Below, one piece after another: positions 20,152 through 62,890 of a stretch of DNA of 64,000 nucleotides. Source of the stretch: Alphaproteobacteria bacterium. Its GTDB lineage: Bacteria; Pseudomonadota; Alphaproteobacteria; UBA828. The position numbers and the translations under genes were made by a program. The stretch spans positions 32,001 through 96,000 of the forward strand of contig CBDCCI010000002.1 of assembly GCA_965214705.1 (NCBI GenBank), in the 5' to 3' direction. How positions within the stretch are numbered: the stretch's first letter is position 1; the number at the start of each line of letters is the position of its first letter. Below the pieces are notes generated by a model. It was not told the origin of the DNA, ran no database searches, and saw nothing but the letters and a program-made list of their open reading frames with translations.

Positions 20152-22431
20152 GACGATCTCCTGTTGGTTCAACCTCCGGGACCCTGTGCCCCGTGGTGAT
20201 GTCCTTTGTGATTCACGCGCGCGCAGCGGCAGCACCTGGCCCTGGGAAGTCTTGGGCGGGTTTGGGTGCGGAAGTTCGGCGATGTCGGTGCGGAAGATGG
20301 CGCCGCCGTGCCGGTGGGAACGGTGCTCCGCAGCAAATCCATTCCAGTGGTCATTACGGCGCCGTGCCGGGCGGGCCCGCTTGGGCCTGCCCGGCGTCTA
20401 GGCGCCGCGACGAATGGTTCCGCGAATGGATTTGAGGCGGTGCAGCGTGACGCGTCGGCCCCGCGTCAGGGGCCGGCGCGCTGCAAGACGAGGCGGTTGG
20501 CAATTACACGCAAGCCATCTTCACGGTCGCCGAACTTCACGGCCCGCCTTAGACTTCCTTGGGTCAGGCCGTAGGGAGCGGAGCGACCGGAGGACCCGCA
20601 GGGTTGCTGTCGCGAGCACGTGTGAAATCCTCGGACATCACGACGGAGTGCGCTGTGAATACCAAGTAGGAGGAAAGCATGAAGTAAACCAAACACTTGG
20701 TAGTGCTGATGATCGACCGGTGGCTGAAACGCCACCCTGCCTGACGAGGGGTGTTGGGCGGAAGGGGATCGCTAAGCTCCGCCGGTTTCCGACGGTGGGG
20801 CGAAAGAGCTGCGATCTGAACTGTACCGGGTGCGGGCCGTCGCTCGCGGGCCGGGCTACCACAGGACCTATGGCGAGGTTGAACGAAGCACGTGACGGAA
20901 GCCTCTTTATTTAGATGTCCAACCCTCAATGGCCCGACGGGGCGGAGGGAGCGCGGTGAGAGCCGGTTGGTCTTCCGTCTGCCGACTGGCGGGTGTGTTG
21001 AACGCACCCGGGTACGGGTCAACCCTTCTATCCCGAACCCCAGAGCTGCAAGGGGTATAGCGTGCCGCCTAAGGGTCTCAGGTTTGTCATCGGAACACAG
21101 GAACCCATGCTGTTCGCCCGGCACGGAACCGGGCTAGCCGCGGAGAACGGAGACGGGCCGCATGGGGGCGGAGCCCTCGTAGTGTGTGCTGGGCAGCGCC
21201 CAGATCAGGTGGGTTCAAGTCCCACTGGCGCTCGGGTAAGGGGCGCCATATCCAAAAGTGGGGGTAATTCCTCACTGGCCGGAGTGAGCCGATAAGCGAA
21301 ACTCTAAACGGGCACGAAGCCGGAAACGGCGGAGACAGCCAAGGGAGGAGCTAAGTTGGTCCACTGTCGAAAGACAACCGGAAGGCAGGGTGTCCACCGC
21401 GAGGTGGAATCTGAAGGGCTTGCGGAGAAGTACCGGGCCGTAATCGAGGGGGCCACCCCATGATGAATCGGTCGGCCAAAGACGGGGCAAGGTCGAGCCG
21501 GCACTATGGCGGCGAAGGCGTTCTTACCCACCCGTCGCACCAAGGTGTTTGCGAGCGGCACGGTACGGAAGATCTGGACGTGACCCCAGGAGGGCTCGCC
21601 GCGTTCCCGGGTGGCACCGGGATAACGGACCCTATAAGCCGAAAGGCGAAATGGGAAAGGATGCGCGGCGAGCAATCGGACAACCGAATAGTACCTGAAG
21701 CCCGGCGAAAGCCGGGTGACCGCGCGAGCGGCGGCCGTGTGGGCCGGGGAAGTCGGTTGGCAGAGGTGGTCGGCGAGAGACAGCGATGAGTGAGTAAGGA
21801 CCATGACGCGGACAAGTTCCTTGAGCGAAAGACCCGGACATCATGGCCCGAGGAGACTCATCGACTGGATCAACCCGGCGGGTGACAGGAAGGTCCACTC
21901 ACTGGTGGACAAGGTGTACAAGCGGAAGAACCTTGAGGTGGCCTGGGAAAAGGTGAAGCGCAACCGGGGTGCCGGTGGCGTGGACGGAGAGGATTTAGCG
22001 GCGTTCGAGGCATCGCTGGATGCAAATCTCGATCGCCTGCACCGGGAGTTGCGGGACGGTGAGTATCACCCGCAGCCGGTTCTCCAATGCCTGATCCCCA
22101 AGGCGGGCCAGCCGGGGAAGTTCCGCCCGCTCGGCATCCCGACAATCTACGACCGGGTGTGCCAGCAGGCGCTGCTGAACCGGCTGGAACCGATCTTCGA
22201 GCCGGTGTTCGACGATGCCAACTACGGGTACCGGCAAGGAAGGTCTGCCCATGGAGCGTTACGCAAGATATGGAGGGAACTGGACGAGGGCAACGAGTGG
22301 GTTCTCGATGCGGATTTGAAAGACTTTTTCGGGTCCGTGGACCACGAAAAGCTCCTCGAACTCGTCAACCAGCGAGTCTCGGATGGCCGGGTATTAGGTC
22401 TGCTCAGGCAGATGCTCACGGCCGGGGTGGT

Positions 22432-24110
22432 GGGTGTGATTCTCGTATGGCGATATGCCAGTCGTGATGGCGCTAAAGGATATGGGCTGGTTCATTTTGG
22501 TCAAGCAGCGAGTGCCAGGACTTCGGTTGGGCTGATGTTGTCGTTAGCTGGTCCGGATCGGGCGTCCATGAGCGCATCCCATGCCCGGTCGAAGAGGCCG
22601 GATTTGATCAGGGCGCGGAAGGTCAGAACCGCCTGCCCGCCGTCGATCCGCCAGCGCATGCCCGAGCGTTTCAAGCGCTGCGCGACGAGGGTCTTGCAGG
22701 CCGCCTCGACCACACCCGAGCCGATGGCGATGCCCTCTTCCTTCAGGGCGTGGTAGCGCATCCGATGGCGGTGCTTTCGGAAGAAGGCCAGTTCGCGCTC
22801 GATCTCGGCCGGGTCCCCCTTTGCCCTGTCCAGGAGGTAGCGCAGTGCCCGGATCACCTTGTCGACGCCGCGGGGGTCGTGGCGCAGGATTTCGCGGTGC
22901 TTCTCGAACCAGTGGCGCGCCACCGCATGGTCAGAGGCCACGCGGAGATGCTCGCAAGCGTGCCAGAAGTCGATGACCTCGGTCTCGGGCGAGAGGCTTT
23001 CGAGGAAGGTCCAGTTGTCGGCGGCCCCGTCGGCGACGGCGCCGATCCTGATCTTCGGGCTCACACGGCGGATATGGGCGACCTCGCTTGCAAGTTGCGC
23101 TTTCAGCGCGGCCTTGCCGCTCTCGGGCATACGGCCGAGATAGAGGGTCTTCAGCCGTTGGCCCTCGGCGTCGTGGAAGGAGACCGTGCCGCAAGAGGCC
23201 TCGCGCCAGCACGCCTCGGCACGGCCGTCCTCGCCGGCCCGCAGCGCCACCATGACGCCGTCAAGGGAGACGGACGCGGTGACCGCATCGGGCGGTATGC
23301 CCTGGGTTTCACGGATGCTGGCCAGCGTCTCCGGGGCGACGCTCTCCCAGTGCTCATGCATGCTCAGGGCCAGGCGCTGCAGCGTGCTCACCGACGGCGT
23401 CATTCCGCCCATTTTCGCGAAGAACTCCTCCGCTTCACGCGGCGTACAGTGGCCCATCATCATCAGCCCGAGCTGCGCCGCCGGCCGCGTCAGGTAGTCG
23501 TCGATGAGGCCCAGGCTCTCGTCCACCGGCACCAGCGACGTGCTGCTCGCGCCGCTGCGATAGCGCGCACGCCGATAGGTCACGGGACCGAGCGTCGTCA
23601 TGATCGTCTTCGGCGTCGCCGCCACCCGGACCCAGCTCTGTCCGTCGCGCTCGATCCGGCTCGCACCGTCGTCGCGGCTCTCGGCGAAGGCCCCAAGGAG
23701 CTTGCAACCCAAGCCGTTCATGGCGTCCCGCAGCCCCGTCTCAACCGTTTCGAACGTCTCGGCAGACGGGTCAGACCCAGCCTGTTCGCGACAGAACTCC
23801 ACCACCTGGGCGACCGCTTCGGCGACTTCGGCAGGCAGGCCCAAAAGGTCGATGGACGAGGCGATGAGAGACTGCGACACTGGCATGGGAACGCTCCTGA
23901 TGTTGGGTCTGATGTTGGGTTGTCGGCGCGGCATCCTACCGCATCTCGCGGTGCGGAGCGTTCCCACCCACCACTGCTGGATGCCGCCGTTGTGACAAAA
24001 TCCGGCCCTGCACCGGCCGATTGTCACGAAAACCCGATTCTGGCTGCCTACGGCCACCCGCCAATCGCGCTAAATCAATGACTTACGATCGCCATGCCAG
24101 ACCTACACCC
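22432..24110 (-). mobile_element. ISKra4/ISLre2-type (prokaryotic Mutator-like) IS
   Basis: IR GGGTGT..ATGGCGAT; 8-bp TSD GGGGTGGT (22424-22431, 24111-24118). Confidence 0.88.
22501..23886 (-). CDS. ISKra4/ISLre2-type transposase
   Basis: SLDGVMV, VADGAADNW, IDFWHACEHL, IGSGVVEAACK, RLKRSGMRW. Confidence 0.85.
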   Translation of the reverse strand: MPVSQSLIASSIDLLGLPAEVAEAVAQVVEFCREQAGSDPSAETFETVETGLRDAMNGLGCKLLGAFAESRDDGASRIERDGQSWVRVAATPKTIMTTLGPVTYRRARYRSGASSTSLVPVDESLGLIDDYLTRPAAQLGLMMMGHCTPREAEEFFAKMGGMTPSVSTLQRLALSMHEHWESVAPETLASIRETQGIPPDAVTASVSLDGVMVALRAGEDGRAEACWREASCGTVSFHDAEGQRLKTLYLGRMPESGKAALKAQLASEVAHIRRVSPKIRIGAVADGAADNWTFLESLSPETEVIDFWHACEHLRVASDHAVARHWFEKHREILRHDPRGVDKVIRALRYLLDRAKGDPAEIERELAFFRKHRHRMRYHALKEEGIAIGSGVVEAACKTLVAQRLKRSGMRWRIDGGQAVLTFRALIKSGLFDRAWDALMDARSGPANDNISPTEVLALAA

Positions 24111-25624
24111 GGGGTGGTGGCCGACGGTAAGAGGCTGCCGACCGAACAGGGCACTCCGCAGGGCGGCATCGTTTCACCGCTGCTCAGCAATATCTTGCTG
24201 ACCCCGTTCGATTGGGAAATGCGTCGTCGCGGCTATCGACTAACGCGATACGCCGATGATTGGCTGATCACGTGCCGCACACGCGGGGAAGCCCGCGCAG
24301 CACTGGAGACGGCCAGGCGGATTCTGGCAAAGCTGGGTGTGTCCCTCAACGCCGGGAAGACCCGCATTGTCCATGTCAGGCACGGGTTTGAGTTCCTCGG
24401 CTACAAGATCAAGCAGGGCGAGCGGCCTCTCCGGCTGTCGTCCTCCAAGATCAAGAGCGGGGTTCGCGGGGGAGCGCGCTACGCGGTTCCGCGTGAGAAA
24501 TCCATCCGGCACTTCAAGGACCAGATTCGCCAGCGTACCCGGCGCAAGGCTCCTGTCAGCACGCAGGAGCTGATTGACGAGATCAACCCGATCATTCGGG
24601 GATGGGGCCAATACTATTGCAAGGCCCACGTCCGCGGGCTCTTCCACCAGCTTGACGGCTGGATCGTGCGGCGGCTCTGGTCGCATCGTCGCAAGCGCTG
24701 GCGCAACGCTGGCTGGAAACAGTTGCCGGAGCGCAAGCTGATCGACGAATACGGGCTTGTTCGCCTGATCTCACTGGTTCCGTCCTTGAACCTTCGTTGA
24801 GACACCTTTGTGAAAGCGGCTTACGGGAAAACCGTACGGGCCGTTTGAGCGGCGGACGGAGGCTAGCCTCGCGGGGCGCCTCCTCCGACCCGACAGTCGG
24901 AGTGCGGGAAAGCCGCATACATGGCGAAGGGGGGCAGAAGGTGGATCGGCTATCGACTGACGGAGGAACTATCCGTGGACTCGGATAATCAGGCCGACAT
25001 GGCCTGGCTCCTCAACGTGCAGCGGAAGTTGTATCGGTGGAGTAAGGAGACGCCTGAAGGCGCTTACGGCGATGTGTGGAACTGGGTAACCGATCCGCGC
25101 AATCTTCGCTGTGCATGGCACTCGATTGCCCAGAACAAGGGCAGACGAACGCCGGGCGTCGACGGGCTGACGGTGGCGAGCATTGCCGCTGGCGATGGAG
25201 GTGTACCGCTCTTTCTGGACGAGCTTCGGGAGGCGCTGCGCGATGGCAGCTACCGACCGTCGCCCGCCCGGCGGAAGTGGATTCCGAAGCCGGGCAAGCC
25301 GGGGAAGTTCCGACCCCTTGGTATCCCCACCGTTGCTGACCGCGTGGTGCAATGCGCGGTCAAGAACATCCTGGAGCCAATTTTCGAGGCGCGTTTCTGG
25401 CAGGTCTCCTACGGGTTCAGGCCCGGACGGGGCTGCCATGGCGCACTCGAACATATCCGGCTGACCACTCGGACTCACAAGTCGAGAACCGATGGGAAGC
25501 TTCGCGACCCTCCCTATCAATGGGTGATTGAAGGGTAAGCGGTATCGGGCCCCCATACTTCCAGCGGATCTGATTTCGGGGCTGACTCTCCGCCTTGACC
25601 ACGAGCCACACAGGAGAGATCGCG

Positions 25625-26050
25625 ATGACAGATTCGATTTTGGCATCTGGCGACGGTGTCGCTGTTGCTTCGGTTGAGATCCCAGCTTCTGAGGGAGCCG
25701 CCCCGGCTCCGTCTGAGCCGGCCCCCATGCGACGCTGGCCGGACGATGAGAAGGCGCGGATTGTCTCGGAGAGCTTTGAGCCGGGCTCTTCGGTTGCGGC
25801 GGTCGCGCGCCGCCATGGCGTCAGCGATACGACCCTGACCAAGTGGCGGCGGCGCGCGCGGGAGGGAACTCTTCCGGGCGCTCGGATTGGTGGCTCTGCA
25901 CCGCCATTTGTTCCCGTGGTGGTTGATAGCGTGACGTCCGAGCGGACGGTGGCGATCGAGGCGCTAGGCGTGGTCGTTCGCCTTCCGGTGGAGAGCGCGG
26001 TCGATCGGATTGTTGCGGTGGCCTCGGGCCTGGGCCGGGCGTCGTCATGA
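25625..26050 (+). CDS. tnpA: IS66 TnpA (HTH)
   Basis: RRWPDDEKARIVSES...SVAAVARRHGV. Confidence 0.88.
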   Translation: MTDSILASGDGVAVASVEIPASEGAAPAPSEPAPMRRWPDDEKARIVSESFEPGSSVAAVARRHGVSDTTLTKWRRRAREGTLPGARIGGSAPPFVPVVVDSVTSERTVAIEALGVVVRLPVESAVDRIVAVASGLGRASS

Positions 26051-26397
26051 TCGCGGCCCCCTCGCTTCGCATCGTGTTGGCGACGCGGCCGGTTGATTTT
26101 CGTCGCGGCCACGACGCGCTTGCGGCGACGGCGGCGGGGGAGCTGGACCTCGATATCTATTCCGGGGTGATCGTGATCTTCCGCTCGCGCCGCGGCGACA
26201 GGCTCAAGCTCCTTGCGTGGGACGGCAGCGGTCTGGTGATGACCTACAAGCGTCTGGAGCAGGGCCGCTTCGCCTGGCCTCGGATCGAGGATGGTGTGAT
26301 GCGCCTTACGAAGGGCCAGTTCGAGGCCCTCTTCGAGGGTCTGGACTGGCGCCGGGTGAAGGCCCGCCCGGTTCGCCGCCCGCTGGCGGCGGAGTGA
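26047..26397 (+). CDS. tnpB: IS66 accessory protein TnpB
   Basis: PVDFRRG, DRLKLLAWDGSG, KRLEQGRFAWP. Confidence 0.92.
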   Translation: MIAAPSLRIVLATRPVDFRRGHDALAATAAGELDLDIYSGVIVIFRSRRGDRLKLLAWDGSGLVMTYKRLEQGRFAWPRIEDGVMRLTKGQFEALFEGLDWRRVKARPVRRPLAAE

Positions 26398-26490
26398 GGC
26401 GGCACGCAGGCGGGGCCGCAGATTTCGGTCGCGGTCCCGCCTGCACTTTTCCCTGGTCATGCATTGGCGAATCGGATTAAGGGGTGGCCC

Positions 26491-28206
26491 ATGCCGAAGG
26501 TCACGCCCTCACCCCTCAGCAGCGCCGGTTCGCCGTCGCCTGCGGTGGTTTCGGCGGCGCTGGCGGCCCTGCATGCGGAGCTTGACGACGAGCGCGCGGC
26601 GCGCCGGGCGACGGAAGCAGCCCTATGCGAAGCGGAGCAGGCACGCGGCGCGGCGGAGGCGGCGAGGCAGACGGCGGAAGCGCGGGCGGCACGGCTGGAG
26701 GCCGAGAACGCGCAGAGCGCGGAGCAGATCAGCCGGCTTGAGCATCTCAACAAGGAGCTCAGGAAGGCGCTGTTCGGTCCGCGCTCCGAGAAGCTCGGCG
26801 AGGACGAGCGCCAGCTTACGTTCGAGGAGTTTTGGGCGGCGATCGCTGAAGCCGGCGGTCGGCCCGAGGCAGATGACCAGGAGCAGGACGAGGGGGCTGG
26901 CGGCAAGCGCCGGCGGCGCTCTTCCCGGGGGTCGCGCAGCGGGGTGCGCTTCGGGCCCCAGGTCGACCGGCGCGAGGAGGTGATCGAGCCGGACACGATC
27001 ATGTGCCCCTGCGGCTGCGGCGAGATGACGAAGATCGGCGAGGACCGCAGCGAGCGGCTGGACTATGAGCCGGCGAAGTTCACCGTCATCGAGACCGTGC
27101 GCCCCCGCTACGCCTGCAACAAGTGCAAGGGGGGCGGGGTGGTGCAGTCGCCGGCGCCGGCCGCTCTGGTCGAGGGCGGCCTTCCCACCGAGGCTCTTCT
27201 GGCGCAGGTGCTGATCGCGAAGTACGGCGATCATTGCCCGCTCTATCGCCAGTCGCAGATCTACGAGCGCTCGGGGATCGAGGTTCACCGTGCGACGCTG
27301 GCGACGTGGGTGGGCCAGGCGTCGTTTCACCTGCGCCCCGTGGTCGCTTGCCTGGAGGATGAGCTGAAGAAGTCGGATCACCTGGGTCTGGACGAGACCA
27401 CGATCCGCGTTCTCGACCCGGGCCGGGGCAAGACGAAGACGGGCTACATGTGGACCCTTGTGCGTGACGAGCGCCACTGGAGCGGCACGGACCCGCCGGG
27501 CGTCGTCTATCGCTATGCGCCCGGCCGCGGCGGCAAGTATGGCGCCGAGCTTATGGAGGGCTTTTCGGGGACGGTGCAGCTCGACGGCTACTCGGGCCAC
27601 AACATCCTGGCGCGGCCGGACCGGGCGGAAGGCCCTGTGACGCGGGCCCTCTGTTGGGCGCATGTAAGACGGAAGCTGAAAGAGGTATACGACTCGAGCG
27701 CATCGCCGATCGCGCTGGCCGGTCTGAATCGGATCGCGAAGCTCTATGCGATCGAGAAGAAGATCCGGGGCAAGCCGCCGGCGGAGCGCCGCGCGATCCG
27801 TTGGGAGGAGTCGGCGCCGATCGTGAACACCTTCGGTGTCTGGCTCGACGAGCAGCGCTCGCGCGTCTCACCGCGCTCGCGTCTCGGCGAGAAGCTGACC
27901 TATATCGCCAACCAGTGGGACGGGCTGCTGGAGTTCCTGCACGACGGTCGTGTCGAGATCGACTCGAACCTGGTGGAAAACCGAATCCGGCCGCTGAAGC
28001 TCACCGCCAAGAACGCGCTCTTCGCCGGCAACGACGAGGGTGCGCAAGCCTGGGCCCGCATCGCCTCGCTGATCGAGACCTGCAAGATGAACGGCGTCGA
28101 GCCCTACGCCTGGATGCGGAGCACGCTCGAGAAGATCGCCAAGGGCCACCCGCAGTCGGGCATCCAGGAGCTTCTGCCGTGGAACTTCCAGCCCGAGGCA
28201 AAATGA
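26491..28206 (+). CDS. tnpC: IS66 transposase TnpC
   Basis: LFGPRSEK, KYGDHCPLYRQ, DETT, CWAHVRRK, IDSNLVENRIR. Confidence 0.93.
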   Translation: MPKVTPSPLSSAGSPSPAVVSAALAALHAELDDERAARRATEAALCEAEQARGAAEAARQTAEARAARLEAENAQSAEQISRLEHLNKELRKALFGPRSEKLGEDERQLTFEEFWAAIAEAGGRPEADDQEQDEGAGGKRRRRSSRGSRSGVRFGPQVDRREEVIEPDTIMCPCGCGEMTKIGEDRSERLDYEPAKFTVIETVRPRYACNKCKGGGVVQSPAPAALVEGGLPTEALLAQVLIAKYGDHCPLYRQSQIYERSGIEVHRATLATWVGQASFHLRPVVACLEDELKKSDHLGLDETTIRVLDPGRGKTKTGYMWTLVRDERHWSGTDPPGVVYRYAPGRGGKYGAELMEGFSGTVQLDGYSGHNILARPDRAEGPVTRALCWAHVRRKLKEVYDSSASPIALAGLNRIAKLYAIEKKIRGKPPAERRAIRWEESAPIVNTFGVWLDEQRSRVSPRSRLGEKLTYIANQWDGLLEFLHDGRVEIDSNLVENRIRPLKLTAKNALFAGNDEGAQAWARIASLIETCKMNGVEPYAWMRSTLEKIAKGHPQSGIQELLPWNFQPEAK

Positions 28207-29465
28207 CTCGCGCGCTCACGGCGCTCCTCAAGAAATCCCCGTCGTAGTCAAGCCAGATTCCGGTATGGGGTCTGCGTACCGCTTACATTGAAGGCGACAT
28301 CGAGGGCTGCTTCGACAACATCGGCCATCACTACCTGATGGAGCGCGTACGGAAATCCGTCGCGGACCGGAAGGTCAACAGGCTGATCGTGCGGTTCCTC
28401 AAAGCCGGGGTATTGGAGGACGTCAACTACAATCCGACAACCACCGGCACGCCTCAAGGGGGTGTCCTGTCTCCCCTGCTGGCCAACATCGCGCTGAGCG
28501 CGATCGAGGAGCGGTACTGGTGGTGGGTGAGGCACCCGCATGATCCCAATATCCGGACTGACGGAAGGCGGATGGCCGCGACACGGCGATTTCGGGACAG
28601 GGAGGCCGGGCGAACGGTCTTCTACCCGGTCCGATATGCCGACGACTTCCTGATCTTCGTGGCGGGCGGTTACGACGATGCGGCTGCTGAGAAGCAGGCG
28701 CTCGCGGACTGGCTGCGCGAGGAGATGGGGCTGACGCTATCGGAGGAGAAGACGCGGATCACCAGACTGACGGAAGGATTCCGGTTCCTCGGATGCCGGG
28801 TTCGTCTCAAAGGGGACGACCATGACGGCTACATGTGCCGGGTCGAAATCCCGAAGGAGGCGATCAGTGACTTCTGCCGGCGGATCAAGCAAGTGCTGAA
28901 TCAGCGGACGCGGACGCGCTCGCTGAGAAGCGTGCTCCAGGAAATCAATCCAATCCTCCGGGGGTGGGGCCACTACTACCGCCACTGCATCGGGGCCAAG
29001 CGCATCCTGTCCAGTCTGGACTGGTATGTGTGGCGACGGCTCTGGCTGTGGATGCGGGGTAAGCACGACGGCGCCTCCCCGCGACGGGTGTACGCTTCTT
29101 GGTCGAGGCCGAGCCGGCAGTATCCCGGCGCTCGGGTCTGGGCCGATGGCGACACTGAGCTGTACCAAATGGGCCGGATTCCGGTCATGCAGTTCAAGCT
29201 CAATTGGATGAAAACTCCTGCCTTCACGAAAGCCTTTGGCGAGCCGGGTGCATAACGAAAGGTGCACGCCCGGTTCTGAGAGAGGGCGCGAGAAACCTGT
29301 GGTGCGTGAGGATCACCAGGCGCTCGCGTCCTACTCTACCGGACCCCTTGTTTTTGTTTCCCGCAAGCGGCGCGGCACCTCCCGCAGCGATGAAATGCGC
29401 GGTGCCGGCCGCGGGCCCGGCAACGGGATCGAGGGCGAGCCGCTCCCGGTGGCGCTCGTCACCGC

Positions 29466-32342: not shown

Positions 32343-32644
32343 TGCGCGACGACGCCTGGAAGACCTACGAGAGTTGGCGGCGGCACTGGCTGTCGGGCGG
32401 GGACAGCAACGCGATCGCCGCGCTGCGCTTCCACGGTCTGCGCGGCGCCCTGGCCGTGACCGGGGCGGCGTGCGGGCGCAGCCGCCCGCACCTGCCGTCG
32501 CCTTCGGCCGTCAACGTGGAGTTGCCCATCGCCAATGCGGCGATCGCCGAGGTCGCCAGCCAGGTCCGGCGCCTGCTGCGCGTGCCGTCGCCTCCGGGGC
32601 TCGCCAGGACCGCGTGGGAACAGGAGGAGAATCGTCATGTCTGA
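32339..32644 (+). CDS. Hypothetical protein of the recombinase element
   Basis: Overlaps the neighbouring stop/start codons on both sides (operon coupling). Confidence 0.6.
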   Translation: MMRDDAWKTYESWRRHWLSGGDSNAIAALRFHGLRGALAVTGAACGRSRPHLPSPSAVNVELPIANAAIAEVASQVRRLLRVPSPPGLARTAWEQEENRHV

Positions 32645-34247
32645 GGCGCAAACCCGCAAGATCGCGCCGCATCATCTGGAGCGCGAGGCCTGCCTCTACG
32701 TGCGGCAGTCCTCGCTTCGCCAGGTCATGCGAAACACCGAGAGCACGCGGCGCCAGTACGGGCTGAGGCAGAGGGCGACGGCGCTCGGCTGGCCGATGGA
32801 ACGGATCCGGGTGATCGACGAGGACCAGGGCAAGTCGGGAGCCTACAGCGAAAACCGCAGCGGCTTCCGCGACCTGATGGGAAGCATCGCCGCCGGCGAG
32901 GTGGGCATCGTTCTCGGCCTGGAGGTCTCGCGCCTGGCGCGGGACAACGCCGACTGGCACCAGCTGCTGCGGATCGCCGGCATCACCAACACCCTGATCC
33001 TCGACGAGACCGGCATCTACGATCCCAACGACAGCAACGATAGGCTCCTTCTCGGCATGAAAGGAACGATGTCCGAGTTCGAGCTTCAGGGGATCAAGGC
33101 GCGGCTGCTCGGCGGCCAGCGCAACGCCGCCGCGCGCGGCGCGCTGAAGATCCGGCTGCCGACCGGCCTGGCCTACAACGGCAAGGACGAGGTTGTGTTC
33201 GACCCCGACCAGTCCGTCGTCGATGCGATCAGCCTCGTGTTCGACAGCTTCCGCCGGATGGGGTCGGCGAAGGCGGTGGCGACATGGATGCAGCGCGAGA
33301 ATATCGCGCTGCCGTCACGGCCGCGAAGCGGGCCGGTCTACGGCGAGCTGCGCTGGGCGCCACCGCGTGTGCCCCAAATCGCCCGCATCCTGAGAAATCC
33401 GCGCTACGCCGGCGCCTACGTGTATGGTCAGACGCATGTCGAGCGGCAGGCGGACGGGACCGGAAGATTGCGTGTCGTGCCGATGGAGAACTGGCTCGTC
33501 TGCATCCAGGACGCCCATGTGGGCTTCATCGATTGGGACGAGTATCTTCGCAATCGAGCCACGCTGAGAGGCAATGCAGCCTCCTTCCTGGAATCGCCCG
33601 CGCGCACGGCGGGACCCCGCGAGGGGGCGGCGCTGTTGCAGTCGCGGGTGATCTGCGGCCACTGCGGCCGGCGCATGACCATGCAGTACAACAACGCTCT
33701 TCCGCACCGCAACCGGCCGGCGCGCTACATCTACATCTGCAACACAGAGGCTAACCATTACGGACGGAAGACCTGCCAGAGCATGCGCGGCGATCTCGTC
33801 GACGCCGAGATATCGCGCTTCGTGATCGACGCGTTGAACCGCGAAAACATCGATGTTGCCCTGGCGGTACAACAGCAGGTCGATGTGGAGTTCGCCGAGG
33901 CCGATGCGCAGCGCGCCAGGCGCATCGAGGGTATCCGCTACGAGGCCGACCTGGCGCGGCGCAGGTTCTTCGAGGTCGACCCCGCCAACCGGCTGGTGGC
34001 GGCGTCGCTCGAAGCCGATTGGAACGAGCGCCTGCGCGAGCTGGACGAGGCCTGCGCGGAACGCGAGGCCCGCGCCGCGGCGCGGGATACCGAGCTCTCC
34101 GAGCGGCAGGTCGAGCGCATCCGGGAACTGGCGCGCGACTTCGAGCAGGTATGGAACGTAAGCGGTATCGGGCCCCCATACTTCCAGCGGATCTGATTTC
34201 GGGGCTGACTCTCCGCCTTGACCACGAGCCACACAGGAGAGATCGCG

Positions 34248-34673
34248 ATGACAGATTCGATTTTGGCATCTGGCGACGGTGTCGCTGTTGCTTCGGTTGA
34301 GATCCCAGCTTCTGAGGGAGCCGCCCCGGCTCCGTCTGAGCCGGCCCCCATGCGACGCTGGCCGGACGATGAGAAGGCGCGGATTGTCTCGGAGAGCTTT
34401 GAGCCGGGCTCTTCGGTTGCGGCGGTCGCGCGCCGCCATGGCGTCAGCGATACGACCCTGACCAAGTGGCGGCGGCGCGCGCGGGAGGGAACTCTTCCGG
34501 GCGCTCGGATTGGTGGCTCTGCACCGCCATTTGTTCCCGTGGTGGTTGATAGCGTGACGTCCGAGCGGACGGTGGCGATCGAGGCGCTAGGCGTGGTCGT
34601 TCGCCTTCCGGTGGAGAGCGCGGTCGATCGGATTGTTGCGGTGGCCTCGGGCCTGGGCCGGGCGTCGTCATGA
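34248..34673 (+). CDS. tnpA: IS66 TnpA
   Basis: Identical translation to copy 1. Confidence 0.88.
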   Translation: MTDSILASGDGVAVASVEIPASEGAAPAPSEPAPMRRWPDDEKARIVSESFEPGSSVAAVARRHGVSDTTLTKWRRRAREGTLPGARIGGSAPPFVPVVVDSVTSERTVAIEALGVVVRLPVESAVDRIVAVASGLGRASS

Positions 34674-35020
34674 TCGCGGCCCCCTCGCTTCGCATCGTGT
34701 TGGCGACGCGGCCGGTTGATTTTCGTCGCGGCCACGACGCGCTTGCGGCGACGGCGGCGGGGGAGCTGGACCTCGATATCTATTCCGGGGTGATCGTGAT
34801 CTTCCGCTCGCGCCGCGGCGACAGGCTCAAGCTCCTTGCGTGGGACGGCAGCGGTCTGGTGATGACCTACAAGCGTCTGGAGCAGGGCCGCTTCGCCTGG
34901 CCTCGGATCGAGGATGGTGTGATGCGCCTTACGAAGGGCCAGTTCGAGGCCCTCTTCGAGGGTCTGGACTGGCGCCGGGTGAAGGCCCGCCCGGTTCGCC
35001 GCCCGCTGGCGGCGGAGTGA
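34670..35020 (+). CDS. tnpB: IS66 TnpB
   Basis: Identical translation to copy 1. Confidence 0.92.
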   Translation: MIAAPSLRIVLATRPVDFRRGHDALAATAAGELDLDIYSGVIVIFRSRRGDRLKLLAWDGSGLVMTYKRLEQGRFAWPRIEDGVMRLTKGQFEALFEGLDWRRVKARPVRRPLAAE

Positions 35021-35113
35021 GGCGGCACGCAGGCGGGGCCGCAGATTTCGGTCGCGGTCCCGCCTGCACTTTTCCCTGGTCATGCATTGGCGAATCGGAT
35101 TAAGGGGTGGCCC

Positions 35114-36829
35114 ATGCCGAAGGTCACGCCCTCACCCCTCAGCAGCGCCGGTTCGCCGTCGCCTGCGGTGGTTTCGGCGGCGCTGGCGGCCCTGCATGCG
35201 GAGCTTGACGACGAGCGCGCGGCGCGCCGGGCGACGGAAGCAGCCCTATGCGAAGCGGAGCAGGCACGCGGCGCGGCGGAGGCGGCGAGGCAGACGGCGG
35301 AAGCGCGGGCGGCACGGCTGGAGGCCGAGAACGCGCAGAGCGCGGAGCAGATCAGCCGGCTTGAGCATCTCAACAAGGAGCTCAGGAAGGCGCTGTTCGG
35401 TCCGCGCTCCGAGAAGCTCGGCGAGGACGAGCGCCAGCTTACGTTCGAGGAGTTTTGGGCGGCGATCGCTGAAGCCGGCGGTCGGCCCGAGGCAGATGAC
35501 CAGGAGCAGGACGAGGGGGCTGGCGGCAAGCGCCGGCGGCGCTCTTCCCGGGGGTCGCGCAGCGGGGTGCGCTTCGGGCCCCAGGTCGACCGGCGCGAGG
35601 AGGTGATCGAGCCGGACACGATCATGTGCCCCTGCGGCTGCGGCGAGATGACGAAGATCGGCGAGGACCGCAGCGAGCGGCTGGACTATGAGCCGGCGAA
35701 GTTCACCGTCATCGAGACCGTGCGCCCCCGCTACGCCTGCAACAAGTGCAAGGGGGGCGGGGTGGTGCAGTCGCCGGCGCCGGCCGCTCTGGTCGAGGGC
35801 GGCCTTCCCACCGAGGCTCTTCTGGCGCAGGTGCTGATCGCGAAGTACGGCGATCATTGCCCGCTCTATCGCCAGTCGCAGATCTACGAGCGCTCGGGGA
35901 TCGAGGTTCACCGTGCGACGCTGGCGACGTGGGTGGGCCAGGCGTCGTTTCACCTGCGCCCCGTGGTCGCTTGCCTGGAGGATGAGCTGAAGAAGTCGGA
36001 TCACCTGGGTCTGGACGAGACCACGATCCGCGTTCTCGACCCGGGCCGGGGCAAGACGAAGACGGGCTACATGTGGACCCTTGTGCGTGACGAGCGCCAC
36101 TGGAGCGGCACGGACCCGCCGGGCGTCGTCTATCGCTATGCGCCCGGCCGCGGCGGCAAGTATGGCGCCGAGCTTATGGAGGGCTTTTCGGGGACGGTGC
36201 AGCTCGACGGCTACTCGGGCCACAACATCCTGGCGCGGCCGGACCGGGCGGAAGGCCCTGTGACGCGGGCCCTCTGTTGGGCGCATGTAAGACGGAAGCT
36301 GAAAGAGGTATACGACTCGAGCGCATCGCCGATCGCGCTGGCCGGTCTGAATCGGATCGCGAAGCTCTATGCGATCGAGAAGAAGATCCGGGGCAAGCCG
36401 CCGGCGGAGCGCCGCGCGATCCGTTGGGAGGAGTCGGCGCCGATCGTGAACACCTTCGGTGTCTGGCTCGACGAGCAGCGCTCGCGCGTCTCACCGCGCT
36501 CGCGTCTCGGCGAGAAGCTGACCTATATCGCCAACCAGTGGGACGGGCTGCTGGAGTTCCTGCACGACGGTCGTGTCGAGATCGACTCGAACCTGGTGGA
36601 AAACCGAATCCGGCCGCTGAAGCTCACCGCCAAGAACGCGCTCTTCGCCGGCAACGACGAGGGTGCGCAAGCCTGGGCCCGCATCGCCTCGCTGATCGAG
36701 ACCTGCAAGATGAACGGCGTCGAGCCCTACGCCTGGATGCGGAGCACGCTCGAGAAGATCGCCAAGGGCCACCCGCAGTCGGGCATCCAGGAGCTTCTGC
36801 CGTGGAACTTCCAGCCCGAGGCAAAATGA
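35114..36829 (+). CDS. tnpC: IS66 transposase TnpC
   Basis: Identical translation to copy 1. Confidence 0.93.
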   Translation: MPKVTPSPLSSAGSPSPAVVSAALAALHAELDDERAARRATEAALCEAEQARGAAEAARQTAEARAARLEAENAQSAEQISRLEHLNKELRKALFGPRSEKLGEDERQLTFEEFWAAIAEAGGRPEADDQEQDEGAGGKRRRRSSRGSRSGVRFGPQVDRREEVIEPDTIMCPCGCGEMTKIGEDRSERLDYEPAKFTVIETVRPRYACNKCKGGGVVQSPAPAALVEGGLPTEALLAQVLIAKYGDHCPLYRQSQIYERSGIEVHRATLATWVGQASFHLRPVVACLEDELKKSDHLGLDETTIRVLDPGRGKTKTGYMWTLVRDERHWSGTDPPGVVYRYAPGRGGKYGAELMEGFSGTVQLDGYSGHNILARPDRAEGPVTRALCWAHVRRKLKEVYDSSASPIALAGLNRIAKLYAIEKKIRGKPPAERRAIRWEESAPIVNTFGVWLDEQRSRVSPRSRLGEKLTYIANQWDGLLEFLHDGRVEIDSNLVENRIRPLKLTAKNALFAGNDEGAQAWARIASLIETCKMNGVEPYAWMRSTLEKIAKGHPQSGIQELLPWNFQPEAK

Positions 36830-37624
36830 CTCGCGCGCTCACGGCGCTCCTCAAGAAATCCCCGTCGTAGTCAAGCCAGATTCCGGTATGGGGTCTGCGT
36901 ACCGCTTACTATGGAACGCCGCCGAGACCGGAAACGCGGACCGCAAGCGGCTGCTCGGGCTTCTGATCGAGGATGCGACGCTGACCCGGGACGGCTCCGA
37001 GGTGACGATCGGCCTGCGCATGCGCGGAGGACGCTCCCTGACGCTGGAGCCGCTTCAACTGCCAAGACCGATGGCGGAGATCCGCAAGACACCTCCGGAG
37101 ACCGTCGCCGCGGTCGACCGGCTCCTGGAAGATCATGGCGACCACGGCACCGCACGGGAGCTGAACACGATGGGGCGCCGAAACTGGAAGGGCGAGCTCT
37201 ACTCGGCCTCGCACGTGGGCAGGATACGGCGGGCTTACGGCTTGCCCAATTACCTCGAGCGCAAGAAGAAACGGCTTCGCGACCAGGGCTTCTCGACCGC
37301 AGCGGAAGTAGCCGCTCAAATCGGCTTCAACGAGAGGGTCGTCCGGTTGATGGGAAGAACGGCAGCGGACACGAGGGTGGAGCGGGTCATCGTTCCGACC
37401 GAAGGCCGGCGGCGGTTCTGCATGTACAGAGCCAACTGCGCCGGCGAAACGGCGCCGTTGCCGGAACCCGCGTCGTGAGAGTGACAATGCCCCCAGGGAA
37501 CGAAACCGTCGCGGCGGCCAGTCGGCCCGGGCGGCGGTGGAGACTCGAAGCCCTCACCAAAAAAGGGGCCAGCGCCGAAGCGCCGGCCCCCGAGTTGGGA
37601 GGGAGGAACGAAGGGAAGCGGTCG

Positions 37625-52453: not shown

Positions 52454-52479
52454 TCTCGAGCATTGTCGTCAAGAGTGTG

Positions 52480-54475: not shown

Positions 54476-54497
54476 AATGTAGTCATATACCTACATT
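54476..54497. promoter_or_regulatory. Putative TA operator palindrome
   Basis: AATGTAG-N8-CTACATT just upstream of the antitoxin. Confidence 0.55.
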
Positions 54498-54514
54498 CAT
54501 CGTGAAAGGTGGGC

Positions 54515-55191: not shown

Positions 55192-55467
55192 CTAGGCGCA
55201 TAGTGAGGCACGAAAGAAACAACGACTCTCCGCATAGGGCGGCGTGCCAGCGAAAGAACCGTTCCGGGCCGCGCTTGATCTCAACGGATTAATTCCTCGC
55301 TCAGCGCGCCAGAAGCAGGCGCTGGCCCGAGACGCGAGTCGTCATGGCTAGAGGCTCCCTCCACCCGATCGCGATTATCCCATCGTGGCTCAAGGCGCAT
55401 AGAAATTCTGACAGAGTTTGGACGTCCTCTACCTTTGGAAGCAAGAGAAAACGGCGGGTTTTCGCTT

Positions 55468-56207
55468 GGACCGCATCCGTTTTAGACGGAACCATATCCG
55501 ACGTTTCGGATGTAGTTTTGGCATTCGCTGGGCTCGATGGTGGCGATGAGGTGTCCGAGATGGCGCCAAGTGTCCTCAAAGTCGCGCTTCTGCGCGCTTC
55601 GCATCCAGTGCTTGATCTTGGCGAAGGCCTGCTCGATGGGATTGAGGTCGGGTGAGTAGGGCGGCAGGAACCAGAGGCGGGCACCGGTACTGCGGATGGC
55701 CTGGCGGACCGCCTTGCCTTTGTGGCTTGTGAGATTGTCGAGGATGACGATGTCGCCGGGCTTGAGGGTGGGGACGAGCTCTTGGTTGCCCCAGGCCTGG
55801 AAGCAGCGTGTGTTGATGGGGCCGTCGAAGACGCGAGGGGCACTGATCCCGTCTGCGCGCAGGGCGGCGAGGAAGGTCATGGTGCGCCAGTGGCCGTGAG
55901 GCGCATATCCCTTCAGGCGCTGCCCTCGCTGCGCCCAGCCCCTGAGCGGTGCCATGTTGGTCTTGATCCAGGTCTTGTCCACGAAGACCAGGCGGTCCGG
56001 GTCGAGGTGGCGCTTGAGCCCCTGCCAGCGCGCCGCCACTTGGCGGATCGGCTCGCCCGCCAGATGAGCCCGCACCACGCGCTCGCGAAGATCACTCGAA
56101 TAGGGTTGTGTCATCCATGCTGGCCTCCTTCACCAGTAGCCAGCTTGAATCACATTCCCTAACCAATGGGAATTCCTAACGATGCTCTCAATAACCGATA
56201 GGCTCTA
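55468..56207 (-). pseudogene. IS630-family element with internal deletion
   Basis: MTQPYSSDLRERV fused directly to RWQGLK..FVDKTW (catalytic DE altered), ILDNL, LPPYSPDLNPIE. Confidence 0.8.
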
Positions 56208-56370
56208 GAGTACCCTGATCCAGGTACGCGCGGGTCTCGCGGTCCCTGCAGGCGCGGCGGAATTCCCGGGCGTCGATGGCAACGGCGGTTAGCACTCCCA
56301 TCTGAATCGTGTGATCGGATCGCCGCGCGCTGCTCGCAACTGAGGGGGACGCAGAGTTGTCGAGCGAGCC

Positions 56371-59337: not shown

Positions 59338-59719
59338 TCAGTGCCTCGGTGGTATCCTCGCTTGTCATCTTCAGCCCGCCAATCCTGCCGGTTTGACCGG
59401 TCAGAAAAGCTCTCCTCTCAACAAGACGCCCGTCAACTCTCGAGGATTGGCGAGATAATTCGAGACCGCTAATTGTCAAACTATTAGCGAATGCAGAACA
59501 TCATGATGGTGAAGGTGGAACAAGCTAAATTTTGTAATAGTGACTTTTAGAAAACTCCACAATTGAGAATTCAGAAACACAAATTTCTGAAAGGGTACGT
59601 CTCGGCGTCGTTTCTTGCAAACACCGGGGCCAACATTCTTTCTGTCGTACTTTCGGCGCTCGCTCTTCCCAGCACAACCCGACTGGCAAGCCCGCTGCGA
59701 TGTACCTCCTGCTGCGTCC

Positions 59720-60334
59720 TAGACCGCATCCGTTTTAGACGGAACCATATCCGGCGTTTCGGATGTAGTTCTGACATTCGCTTGGCTCGATGGTGGCGAT
59801 GAGGTGGCCGAGATGGCGCCAAGTGTCCTCGAAGTTGCGCTTCTGCGCGTTGCGCATCCAGTGCTTGATCTTGGCGAAGGTCTGCTCGGTGGGGTTTGAG
59901 GTCGGGTGAGTAGGGCGGCAGGAACCAGAGGCGGGCGCCGGTGCTGCGGATGGCCTGGCGGACCGCCTTGCCTTTGTGGCTTGTGAGATTGTCGAGGATG
60001 ACGATGTCGCCGGGCTTGAGGGTGGGGACGAGCTCTTGGTTGCCCCAGGCCTGGAAGCAGCGTGTGTTGATAGGGCCGTCGAAGACGCAAGGGGCGCTGA
60101 TCCCGTCTGTGCGCAGGGCGGCAAGGAAGGTCATAGTGCGCCAGTGGCCGTGAGGCGCATATCCCTTCAGGCGCTGGCCTCGCTGTGCCCAGCCCCTGAG
60201 CGGTGCCATGTTGGTCTTGATCCAGGTCTCGTCCACGAAGACCGGGTGGTCCGGGTCGAGGTGGCGCTTGAGCGCCTGCCAGCGTGCTCTCTTGCGGGCA
60301 ACGGCGGCGCGCGCCTGCTCAGTCACGAACTGCG
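59720..60334 (-). pseudogene. IS630-family 3' fragment, frameshifted
   Basis: Near-identical to 55468-56028; FVDETWIKTNM; frameshift after PDLK. Confidence 0.8.
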
Positions 60335-60748
60335 GCGCGACAAACAAGATGAGGAGCGCCGAGCTAACTGGCGCAGGGGAGTCGGTGAGAGTCCGACGGG
60401 AAGGAAAGGCTAACCACTACTTCCACCGCGAGCCGTGCGGCGGCATCCGTGAGGGTGCGGTCGAAGCGTCGGTAGCGGCGCGTGTGGCCGGGATGATTGA
60501 GCATCGAAAATGTTATGGTCCGGAGTGCCGAGGTTTTCTCATCGGCCGAAGGCGACACCCGCAGGACCGCTCTGGTGAGGCACTGCGGGGCTCCGCGTTG
60601 TCTGAGGAATCCATGGACGCACGTACACCCCTGTGCCGGGACTCGGGAGGGCTTCGACTTGCCCCGGTGGTCGTACCGGGGCCGCGGAAGAAAGGAGGAT
60701 ATCCGAATCGAAGATGTACGAGTCGAAGCAATCTGATTCGGCCATAGT

Positions 60749-62772
60749 GTGTGCTGGGCAGCGCCCAGATCAGGTGGGTTCAAGTCCCACTGGCGCTCGG
60801 GTAAGGGGCGCCATATCCAAAAGTGGGGGTAATTCCTCACTGGCCGGAGTGAGCCGATAAGCGAAACTCTAAACGGGCACGAAGCCGGAAACGGCGGAGA
60901 CAGCCAAGGGAGGAGCTAAGTTGGTCCACTGTCGAAAGACAACCGGAAGGCAGGGTGTCCACCGCGAGGTGGAATCTGAAGGGCTTGCGGAGAAGTACCG
61001 GGCCGTAATCGAGGGGGCCACCCCATGATGAATCGGTCGGCCAAAGACGGGGCAAGGTCGAGCCGGCACTATGGCGGCGAAGGCGTTCTTACCCACCCGT
61101 CGCACCAAGGTGTTTGCGAGCGGCACGGTACGGAAGATCTGGACGTGACCCCAGGAGGGCTCGCCGCGTTCCCGGGTGGCACCGGGATAACGGACCCTAT
61201 AAGCCGAAAGGCGAAATGGGAAAGGATGCGCGGCGAGCAATCGGACAACCGAATAGTACCTGAAGCCCGGCGAAAGCCGGGTGACCGCGCGAGCGGCGGC
61301 CGTGTGGGCCGGGGAAGTCGGTTGGCAGAGGTGGTCGGCGAGAGACAGCGATGAGTGAGTAAGGACCATGACGCGGACAAGTTCCTTGAGCGAAAGACCC
61401 GGACATCATGGCCCGAGGAGACTCATCGACTGGATCAACCCGGCGGGTGACAGGAAGGTCCACTCACTGGTGGACAAGGTGTACAAGCGGAAGAACCTTG
61501 AGGTGGCCTGGGAAAAGGTGAAGCGCAACCGGGGTGCCGGTGGCGTGGACGGAGAGGATTTAGCGGCGTTCGAGGCATCGCTGGATGCAAATCTCGATCG
61601 CCTGCACCGGGAGTTGCGGGACGGTGAGTATCACCCGCAGCCGGTTCTCCAATGCCTGATCCCCAAGGCGGGCCAGCCGGGGAAGTTCCGCCCGCTCGGC
61701 ATCCCGACAATCTACGACCGGGTGTGCCAGCAGGCGCTGCTGAACCGGCTGGAACCGATCTTCGAGCCGGTGTTCGACGATGCCAACTACGGGTACCGGC
61801 AAGGAAGGTCTGCCCATGGAGCGTTACGCAAGATATGGAGGGAACTGGACGAGGGCAACGAGTGGGTTCTCGATGCGGATTTGAAAGACTTTTTCGGGTC
61901 CGTGGACCACGAAAAGCTCCTCGAACTCGTCAACCAGCGAGTCTCGGATGGCCGGGTATTAGGTCTGCTCAGGCAGATGCTCACGGCCGGGGTGGTGGCC
62001 GACGGTAAGAGGCTGCCGACCGAACAGGGCACTCCGCAGGGCGGCATCGTTTCACCGCTGCTCAGCAATATCTTGCTGACCCCGTTCGATTGGGAAATGC
62101 GTCGTCGCGGCTATCGACTAACGCGATACGCCGATGATTGGCTGATCACGTGCCGCACACGCGGGGAAGCCCGCGCAGCACTGGAGACGGCCAGGCGGAT
62201 TCTGGCAAAGCTGGGTGTGTCCCTCAACGCCGGGAAGACCCGCATTGTCCATGTCAGGCACGGGTTTGAGTTCCTCGGCTACAAGATCAAGCAGGGCGAG
62301 CGGCCTCTCCGGCTGTCGTCCTCCAAGATCAAGAGCGGGGTTCGCGGGGGAGCGCGCTACGCGGTTCCGCGTGAGAAATCCATCCGGCACTTCAAGGACC
62401 AGATTCGCCAGCGTACCCGGCGCAAGGCTCCTGTCAGCACGCAGGAGCTGATTGACGAGATCAACCCGATCATTCGGGGATGGGGCCAATACTATTGCAA
62501 GGCCCACGTCCGCGGGCTCTTCCACCAGCTTGACGGCTGGATCGTGCGGCGGCTCTGGTCGCATCGTCGCAAGCGCTGGCGCAACGCTGGCTGGAAACAG
62601 TTGCCGGAGCGCAAGCTGATCGACGAATACGGGCTTGTTCGCCTGATCTCACTGGTTCCGTCCTTGAACCTTCGTTGAGACACCTTTGTGAAAGCGGCTT
62701 ACGGGAAAACCGTACGGGCCGTTTGAGCGGCGGACGGAGGCTAGCCTCGCGGGGCGCCTCCTCCGACCCGAC
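60749..62772 (+). mobile_element. Group II intron B, copy 2 (intact, 2024 nt)
   Basis: 5' GTGTG, DV AAGCGGCTTACGGGAAAACCGTACGGGCCGTTT, 3' CCGAC. Confidence 0.93.
61368..62678 (+). CDS. ltrA: Group II intron RT/maturase, 436 aa, no endonuclease domain seen
   Basis: GAGGVDG, RPLGIPT, DADLKDFF, GTPQGG, RYADD, FLGY, NPIIRGWGQYY. Confidence 0.95.
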   Translation: MTRTSSLSERPGHHGPRRLIDWINPAGDRKVHSLVDKVYKRKNLEVAWEKVKRNRGAGGVDGEDLAAFEASLDANLDRLHRELRDGEYHPQPVLQCLIPKAGQPGKFRPLGIPTIYDRVCQQALLNRLEPIFEPVFDDANYGYRQGRSAHGALRKIWRELDEGNEWVLDADLKDFFGSVDHEKLLELVNQRVSDGRVLGLLRQMLTAGVVADGKRLPTEQGTPQGGIVSPLLSNILLTPFDWEMRRRGYRLTRYADDWLITCRTRGEARAALETARRILAKLGVSLNAGKTRIVHVRHGFEFLGYKIKQGERPLRLSSSKIKSGVRGGARYAVPREKSIRHFKDQIRQRTRRKAPVSTQELIDEINPIIRGWGQYYCKAHVRGLFHQLDGWIVRRLWSHRRKRWRNAGWKQLPERKLIDEYGLVRLISLVPSLNLR

Positions 62773-62890
62773 AGCGATGAAGTCGGCGAACAAGGGGCCG
62801 CGAGGTCCGGCGGAGCCGATGAAGCGAAGGGCCGGAACCGAGAGGAATCCGCGACGCGAAAGCACGCGCCGGACGCAGAGCCGGGAAAGC

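Follow-up and report, generated by a model that had tools for sequence, protein, structure and literature searches.

The window analyzed here is a 64,000-nucleotide (nt) stretch of an Alphaproteobacteria genome (GenBank assembly GCA_965214705.1, contig CBDCCI010000002.1, positions 32,001 to 96,000). It carries two copies of one group II intron, termed intron B, each lying inside a larger group II intron: host intron A around copy 1 and host intron C around copy 2 (Table 1). Self-comparison combined with Rfam and Pfam scans resolves a three-level nest in which an insertion sequence (IS) sits within B, which itself sits within host A. A first-pass annotation, made from the sequence alone, had placed a 2024-nt B at the equivalent position of two unrelated hosts. 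The position holds, and the flanks are found as it quoted them (..GGAGCCCUCGUAGU-B-AGUCGG.. in host A and ..UGAUUCGGCCAUAGU-B-AGCGAUG.. in host C); copy 1 enters 536 nt into host A, whose segment 20648-21183 runs from domain I (DI) to the 5′ strand of domain III (DIII). The length holds for copy 2 only. Self-BLAST pairs two blocks of copy 1 (21180-22433 and 24109-24896) with 60745-61998 and 61987-62774, and copy 1, split by a 1675-nt IS that had gone unmentioned, therefore measures 3711 nt. The hosts do belong to different group II families, but "unrelated" overstates the case, as their reverse transcriptases (RTs) are still 27-43% identical. Host C gives a 152-bit match to the Rfam D1-D4 model RF02005 (60388-60610), whereas host A has no match to any D1-D4 Rfam model.

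Copy 2 of B starts with GUGUG at 60749 and ends with CCCGAC at 62772, in agreement with the GUGYG start and the DV-DVI-AY end of group II introns. A full-size DI-DIII region of about 620 nt precedes the open reading frame (ORF), which begins at B nt 620 and encodes an RT with RVT_1 (E = 3e-40) and GIIM (E = 2e-19) domains, a TIGR04416 score of 383.8 bits against a cutoff of 300, a YADD motif at residue 254 and no endonuclease domain. The solved structures nearest to this RT are IIC RTs (6ar1, E = 1e-63; 7uim, E = 3e-63). The DV/DVI region of B reaches only 29.1 bits with RF00029, under the cutoff of 40, and was read at the equivalent place in copy 1 (24812-24894); in relatives the same region attains the cutoff, for example with 42.1 bits in loci L061, L077 and L079. 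These sequence features point to an RT-encoding, IIB-like group II intron, and the 20 near-identical copies in the genome are indirect evidence that it is mobile. As expected of twintrons, host A has its own 5′ end, its RT pieces and its DV (RF00029, 29239-29339, 50.8 bits) around B, and host C has the RF02005 match upstream of B and an RT from about position 62819 downstream of it.

We then located the insertion site within the host ribozymes. The D1-D4 model RF01998 ends in a hairpin with the consensus GcC-AUAGUA-gccgcc...ggcggc-GAAG-GgC, that is ..GcCAUAGUAgccgcc..ggcggcGAAGGgC. In occupied hosts the RF01998 match stops at the 5′ junction of B, whereas an unoccupied copy on the same contig matches fully. 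Minimum free energy (MFE) folds were computed for four natural empty sites and for the corresponding hairpin of B itself; in each, the insertion point falls within an internal loop, on its 5′ strand, with a stem of 6-7 bp beneath (6 bp in the empty host A copy). The hairpin of B itself (nt 498-576) lies ahead of its ORF and has the same layout as the target, with AGUCGGA, a basal stem and AAUAGUA opposite GAAG; in the family alignment, its basal stem shows compensatory changes. It differs from the target by an A at position -6, which agrees with the mismatch that the first-pass annotation had reported at B's own site (AAUAGU/AC, 21687-21693). On the 3′ side a host RT follows shortly, a second RT starting no more than 700 nt past the 3′ end of B in 24 related loci, mostly at 70-215 nt. 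The target is accordingly modeled as DIII, the last hairpin before the ORF-bearing DIV and after DII and J2/3, with a basal stem topped by an asymmetric internal loop in which (A/G)UAGUA would face GAAG. This is the loop architecture that the first-pass annotation had given as a conserved feature of DIII, and the last hairpin of RF01998, the MFE folds and the basal-stem covariation in the B family all bear it out. The DIII internal loop has been described as a class-diagnostic feature (PMC5088586), and adenosines of DIII are reported to stack beneath DV (PMC4476101).

Two other measures of DIII context were tried and set aside. Contiguous pairing of the 5′ flank with the stretch after NAA proved too strict, the basal stem being only 3 bp long in many hosts, those of the RF01998 type among them. 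By duplex energy (8 nt upstream against 120 nt downstream), occupied sites could not be told apart from 579 controls in this genome of 67% G+C. DIII context was scored instead by Rfam matches, by a downstream host RT or DV and by folds of natural empty sites.

To determine how B reads its target, we aligned the first 640 nt of B with those of 34 relatives (35 members). The loop ACUAUG, noted in both copies by the first-pass annotation, corresponds to B nt 320-325 and behaves as exon-binding site 1 (EBS1). It pairs fully with the intron-binding site (IBS1) CAUAGU and through one G-U with CGUAGU; across the alignment all six pairs form in 29 of the 35 members and five of the six pairs in the other 6. 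Eight loci (L044, L046, L047, L056, L060, L064, L071 and L072) carry compensatory changes: ACCAUG faces CAUGGU in L060, L071 and L072, ACUUUG faces CAAAGU in L056, AUUAUG faces GUAAU in L046 and L047, AGUAUG faces CGUAUU in L044, and in L064 EBS1 is wholly retargeted. A scan for columns that track the first base of the 3′ exon identified B nt 365, which is complementary to the +1 base in 31 of 31 cases (U-A in 29 loci, and two compensatory changes, C-G in L060 and A-U in L064). The base 5′ of EBS1 is a C and unable to pair with the +1 A, so that a delta-delta′ mode does not fit. The covariation of nt 365 with +1 indicates that B reads the 3′ exon by EBS3, like IIB and IIC introns. The candidate EBS2 of the first-pass annotation (B 281-288) is not supported: its 7-bp pairing is limited to host C, and across the family it stays invariant instead of covarying with the target. 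Further upstream of the insertion point, a conserved GUCNGA resembles the host J2/3; it is weak in non-intron sites (G at -14 in 5/9, C at -16 in 4/9). As a separate observation, L045 and L056 lie on one contig and in the same host family, one with EBS1 ACUAUG at a CAUAGU DIII and the other with ACUUUG at a CAAAGU DIII; an unoccupied CAAAGUA copy is present at L045:5519-5601.

The source genome (7.92 Mb in 3 contigs, 67% G+C) contains 20 full-length-equivalent copies of B, 98.9-100% identical, and a 292-nt 5′ fragment. Eleven of the 20 are uninterrupted (one with a 16-nt deletion) and nine are interrupted by other insertions. NRUAGU precedes all 21 copies (CAUAGU in 13, CGUAGU in 6, UAUAGU and GAUAGU in 1 each), and the +1 base is A in all 20 that have a 3′ end. 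Inside other group II introns lie 17 of the 21: 12 sit 120-241 nt past an RF02005 match and one more does so with an extra insertion between, one lies past an RF02003 match, one is the copy in host A, and two are followed by a host DV. Neither RF02001 nor RF01999 has a match in this genome.

Occupancy differs between host families. With CAUAGU at the site, B is present in 5/5 copies of the GTAA type (RF02005), in 3/5 copies of the CAA type plus a chimeric sixth, and in 2/4 copies of the host C type. With CGUAGU, it is present in 1/7 copies of the host A type, in 0/5 copies of an ORF-less 671-nt type and in the single RF02003-type intron (1/1), four relatives of which have CGUAAG and no B (0/4). 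Exact natural empty sites number 2 for the host C type, 2 for the CAA type, 6 for the host A type (its uninterrupted paralogues) and 5 for the ORF-less type. In these empty copies the two flanks are exactly joined, showing that the insertion is precise.

The ORF-less type is a mini-intron of the RF02005 type with its own DV; all five copies have a CGUAGUA DIII site (C1:1859822-1861187, C1:421559-422232, C1:2635785 and C3:1789174, two of the copies forming a head-to-tail tandem). Two hosts of B stand apart: in the RF02005-type host at C1:2612759-2614327 about 1.2 kb of unrelated DNA lies between ..GGGGCCAUAG and ..UUUCCAUAGU preceding B, and the 5′ part is foreign in the host at C1:1694283.

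We compared these insertions with the supply of 7-nt targets. In this genome 579 C[AG]TAGTA sites are unoccupied (CATAGTA accounts for 84), a number close to the 670 expected from base composition. Occupied sites of this sequence make up 15/30 of those in DIII and 4/568 of those elsewhere (odds ratio 141, p = 2e-18), and counting each host family once preserves the difference (occupied/unoccupied 8/1 in DIII vs 3/438 elsewhere, p = 4e-14). Within DIII, CAUAGUA is occupied in 13/17 cases vs 2/13 for CGUAGUA.

One genome per species was then scanned with the B RT, which returned 63 loci at 50-93% amino acid identity by the search's own figures. The records are labeled Nitrospirales, Alpha- and Gammaproteobacteria, Thermodesulfobacteriota, Gemmatimonadota, Ca. 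Entotheonella, Acidobacteriota, Planctomycetota, Chloroflexota, Ignavibacteriae and others. We counted a locus as nested if a same-strand D1-D4 match ended no more than 450 nt upstream, if a second RT started no more than 700 nt downstream, or if a host DV lay downstream. Among the 52 loci with a mapped junction, 35 are nested (37 counting two with an inferred junction) and 8 could not be judged for DIII context. The first-pass annotation had called for such a count, and the majority of homologues are indeed found in other introns and not outside them. Of the loci scanned with Rfam, 27 had a mapped 5′ junction together with 450 nt or more of upstream sequence; 21 of these show the D1-D4 match, and 2 more a host RT and DV. 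The related hosts match RF02005 (11), RF02001 with or without RF01998 (7), RF02003 (5) and RF01999 (2-3), and thus fall into four D1-D4 model groups (five Rfam accessions). In a genome of the same genus, B of about 91% nt identity occupies two hosts, of the RF02005 and RF01999 types, after CAUAGU and CGUAGU. At three loci of a single record (L046, L047 and L054) the same B variant is found, once with an RF02005 host, once with an RF02003 host and once outside introns.

An RT tree was built from the B of the window, 15 host RTs and those 27 relatives that gave one full-length match free of stops, 36 loci being omitted from the B rows; the L090 row, entered as a host, is a divergent family member mislabeled by the cut-off. 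The B family groups as a single clade with SH-aLRT 99, separate from three or more deep clades of host RTs, and its RTs diverge to 56% identity (50% with the L090 row). DIII insertion occurs on every sub-branch of the B clade. The only two members in the tree without it are one nested pair, for which a single change of state suffices. DIII targeting is a trait of the whole RT clade, across many phyla. The tree is discordant with the taxonomy of the records, indicating horizontal spread. In particular, RTs 88-93% identical to that of the window (L042-L056) come from records labeled Nitrospirales, Thermodesulfobacteriota, Longimicrobiales, Ca. Entotheonella, Paracoccaceae and Alphaproteobacteria, which suggests recent horizontal transfer or the binning of shared mobile DNA.

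One member of the family has a different target. The B relative in L064 (about 2920-2951 and 4903-4950), whose RT is 69% identical to that of B, occupies not DIII but the exact boundary of DV and DVI in a D1D4-3-type intron, DV and DVI having been identified by eye from the flanks. Its EBS1 now reads CCCACCGUA and fits UACGGUGG on the 3′ strand of DV, and the EBS3 is now A, in accordance with the +1 U. Judged from these pairings, the DV 3′ strand of this host is apparently another conserved ribozyme motif that serves as target.

Taken together, B is very probably an autonomous, IIB-like intron without an endonuclease whose retrohoming site is the 5′ strand of the DIII internal loop in other introns. 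The first-pass annotation had suggested that B targets a ribozyme motif common to several intron families, and the genome copies, the related loci, the covariation of EBS1 and EBS3 and the RF01998 consensus agree with it. Spliced B RNA would pick its site by pairing EBS1 with IBS1 (CAUAGU or CGUAGU) and the EBS3 U with the +1 A. Several intron families share the conserved loop (A/G)UAGUA opposite GAAG, which is why a single intron is able to invade hosts of more than one family; each entry would make a twintron. As the first-pass annotation proposed, a host would have to splice B out before folding. Integration would involve reverse splicing of B into DNA, with priming at replication forks as for other introns that lack an endonuclease; an extra determinant or selection may keep B to DIII, and a mobile, dispensable host may serve it as both safe site and vehicle. 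The copies of B differ from one another at few positions, two of which are informative about its history, nt 570 (T/G) and nt 88 (C/G). Both nt-570 alleles are found in GTAA hosts and both nt-88 alleles in CAA hosts, and each allele is present in several unrelated contexts. The alleles of B thus cut across host families, which indicates repeated insertion.

Several observations weigh against this interpretation. The bias toward DIII is strong, but the specialization claimed by the first-pass annotation is not exclusive. Four of the 21 copies in the genome lie outside introns: one has entered a Hydantoinase_B gene in antisense orientation, cutting it into pieces of 409 and 183 amino acids (aa), two related sites are beside a DDE transposase, and one is beside an AAA_22 ATPase gene with an unoccupied paralogous site. 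Similarly, 7 of the 52 related loci have long flanks without DIII context. Matching DIII sites are also left unused, as in the ORF-less hosts and most of the host A type. Copies within one host family are not independent, and the five GTAA hosts, all of which carry B, may partly reflect composite movement. Position, folds and Rfam models, and not a solved structure, are the basis for the assignment to DIII. The joint 60748-62773 expected after removal of B is present in contigs of three RNA libraries, yet it also occurs in one DNA run and in empty paralogues; as these paralogues carry the joined form, its presence in the RNA libraries says nothing about splicing, nor do contigs of B in such libraries prove that it is transcribed. 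In a scan of all DI 5-mers against positions -24 to -7 no EBS2 emerged, the best candidate being fully paired in 15/32. Lastly, 80 perfect CAUAGUA sites outside introns are unoccupied, so EBS1 and EBS3 cannot be the whole rule, and a further determinant, selection, or both must add to the DIII bias.

The B clade may be an obligate "intron of introns" which beyond EBS1 and EBS3 recognizes the J2/3-DIII module, as DNA or as folded host RNA, rides mobile hosts across phyla and retargets to other invariant motifs, as L064 would exemplify; we consider this possible but hold it only tentatively. If true, motifs of the catalytic core would be universal homing sites for hyperparasitic introns. Alternatively, and in our judgment unlikely, the bias is a by-product: B would be an ordinary intron at home in the DIII of one family, spread by the conservation of the loop, with purifying selection removing insertions elsewhere. 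The target that is demonstrably read amounts to 7 bases without an identified EBS2, the perfect match is preferred over G-U, and the four non-intron insertions, one of them disrupting a cellular gene, show that B can land elsewhere, all of which would fit a by-product. However, the 80 empty CAUAGUA sites outside introns stand against 13/17 occupied inside, and many of these empty sites lie in repeated IS copies, where insertion should do no harm. The persistence of the trait across the B clade at such RT divergence, with hosts in at least three deep RT clades, also speaks against a by-product.

Invasion at the RNA level is quite improbable. Lariats of B would reverse-splice into the DIII loop, exposed and single-stranded, of abundant host-intron RNA, and host retrohoming would then make the composite DNA. 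A strong DIII bias without extra sequence determinants would follow naturally, as would the presence of B in every copy of one mobile host family; nevertheless, the four non-intron insertions, one antisense to a gene, are hard to reach through RNA, and both B570 alleles occur inside the GTAA family. Co-inheritance, in which a composite twintron formed by one ancient insertion spread as a unit, could account for the five B-bearing GTAA hosts with identical flanks at no fewer than four genomic sites, and composite mobility is named as one route by Mohr et al. (PMC2882425), but it is scarcely credible given that four host families have empty copies, that B is 99.9-100% identical in hosts whose RTs are as divergent as those of A and C, that B570 and B88 alleles cross host families, that hosts fall into four D1-D4 model groups, and that one genome pairs ACUUUG with CAAAGU and ACUAUG with CAUAGU.

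Nested group II introns have been described before, and the commonest neighbors of introns are other introns (Waldern et al., 2020, PMC7306698). In T. elongatus, the ORF-less F3 introns TeI3a-e lie within the F1 introns TeI4a-e (Mohr, Ghanem and Lambowitz, 2010, PMC2882425), and the authors' rationale, proliferation into non-essential DNA, would apply equally to B. That system differs in using a DIV site that lies between the first and the second ATG of the host ORF, and in involving one closely related host family of a single genome (PMC2882425). Its inner intron is ORF-less (PMC2882425), whereas B encodes its own RT and has a DIII ribozyme motif as its site, a different hairpin upstream of DIV. 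The nested introns of M. acetivorans share with B repeated site-specific homing into group II introns as a perpetual homing site (PMC4424553), but according to the title of the original paper (Dai and Zimmerly, 2003) their targets are related intron ORFs, in one archaeal genome. In the Trichodesmium twintron the inner intron also breaks a ribozyme domain and must be removed in sequence, as may be expected of B; it lies in DI near the theta interaction site, at one locus (Pfreundt and Hess, 2015, PMC4649490). Introns in introns are likewise known from Euglena and red-algal plastids (PMC4424553), and in Porphyridium one inner intron occurs in two different outer introns (Perrineau et al., 2015, PMC4476101). 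These plastid twintrons are organellar, the Porphyridium site is in DIV, and they have no general landing site in the form of a conserved ribozyme motif. Like B, class C (IIC) introns are endonuclease-less and directed to an unusual, structure-linked, widely available target, namely terminators and attC hairpins (PMC4424553); B differs by its 6-nt EBS1 with EBS3, its full-size DI-DIII and a target that is a sequence within another ribozyme gene and not a hairpin. A DIII-homing lineage was not found described in full-text literature searches, which reached neither supplements nor two key papers. New here are the use of a conserved DIII ribozyme motif as target, the host range, and the trait as a mark of a widespread RT clade.

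A conserved piece of ribozyme as landing site lets one element colonize different intron families and provides a natural explanation for the repeated origin of twintrons. The clade that has this site is found in metagenome-assembled and other genomes labeled as more than 10 phyla, and within the window alone selfish elements are layered as IS in intron in intron. With EBS1, EBS3, a 7-nt target and a further determinant, B offers a defined system in which to study how retrohoming is confined to a structured context. One published intron-finding pipeline is described as unable to detect the outer intron of a twintron (PMC8919778), so hosts such as A and C would be missed by it.

The coordinates of the nested elements are collected in Table 1. 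The ends of host A were set by its paralogous copies, the 5′ end being the start and the 3′ end the stop of the match among them, and the boundaries of host C were likewise taken from its paralogues.

Table 1. Nested introns and the elements that interrupt them, in coordinates of the window.
Feature	Position	Strand	Remarks
Host intron A	20648-29339	+	composite 8692 nt, about 2222 nt minus its two inserts; 5′ GUGCG at 20648
Host A DIII, 5′ strand	21170-21183	+	predicted basal stem GCCCUC and loop GUAGU; final six bases CGUAGU = IBS1
Intron B, copy 1	21184-24894	+	interrupted; 100% identical to copy 2 in two blocks
EBS1 of copy 1	21503-21508	+	ACUAUG; covariation with IBS1 in relatives
EBS3 of copy 1	21548	+	U, B nt 365; covariation with +1 base in relatives
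ISLre2-like IS in B copy 1	about 22434-24108	-	1675 nt; transposase ORF 22501-24057, minus strand
Host A DIII, 3′ part	24895-24941	+	AGUCGG...GGCGAAGGGGGGC
Host A RT ORF, N-terminal piece	24921-25538	+	RVT_1 profile positions 1-65
IS66-family element splitting host A RT ORF	25535-28292	+	DDE_Tnp_IS66, E = 1e-96
Host A RT ORF, C-terminal piece	28338-29255	+	RVT_1 100-205 and GIIM
Host intron C	60354-64000	+	5′ GAGCG at 60354; leaves the window, estimated end about 290 nt beyond
Host C DIII, 5′ strand	60736-60748	+	predicted basal stem UUCGGCC and loop AUAGU; final six bases CAUAGU = IBS1
Intron B, copy 2	60749-62772	+	intact, 2024 nt
EBS1 of copy 2	61068-61073	+	ACUAUG; covariation with IBS1
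EBS3 of copy 2	61113	+	covariation with +1 base
DIII of B itself (copy 2)	61246-61324	+	CAACCG / AAUAGUA ... GAAG / UCGGUUG
B RT/maturase ORF	61368-62678	+	436 aa
B DV/DVI	62690-62772	+	RF00029
Host C DIII, 3′ part	62773-62840	+	AGCGAUGAAG...GCGAAGGGCCGGAA
Host C RT ORF	62819-64000	+	open at window end; RVT_1; TIGR04416 323 bits

The IS in copy 1 encodes a transposase with a PF06782 (UPF0236) match (E = 6.9e-8), which we take to mark the ISLre2 family. Its genome complement is 24 near-full copies of at least 99.9% identity with 8-bp target duplications. The ORF at 22750-24081 gave low recognition in a database search; the true gene is on the opposite strand. This IS has struck three B copies at three positions (22434-24108 of the window, C1:1696070-1697746 and C3:1610866-1612543).

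The IS66-family element that splits the host A RT ORF is 2759 nt long, and self-comparison finds a second copy at 34158-36916 (99.9% identity). Adjoining that second copy is a large serine recombinase ORF (32535-34196, plus strand; Resolvase, Recombinase and Zn_ribbon_recom domains). Directly upstream of the 5′ end of host C lies a DDE_3 transposase ORF (59571-60347, minus strand) with a 95%-identical repeat (55469-56030 / 59722-60284). As the ORF and the repeat abut this end, host C is placed beside or within an IS.

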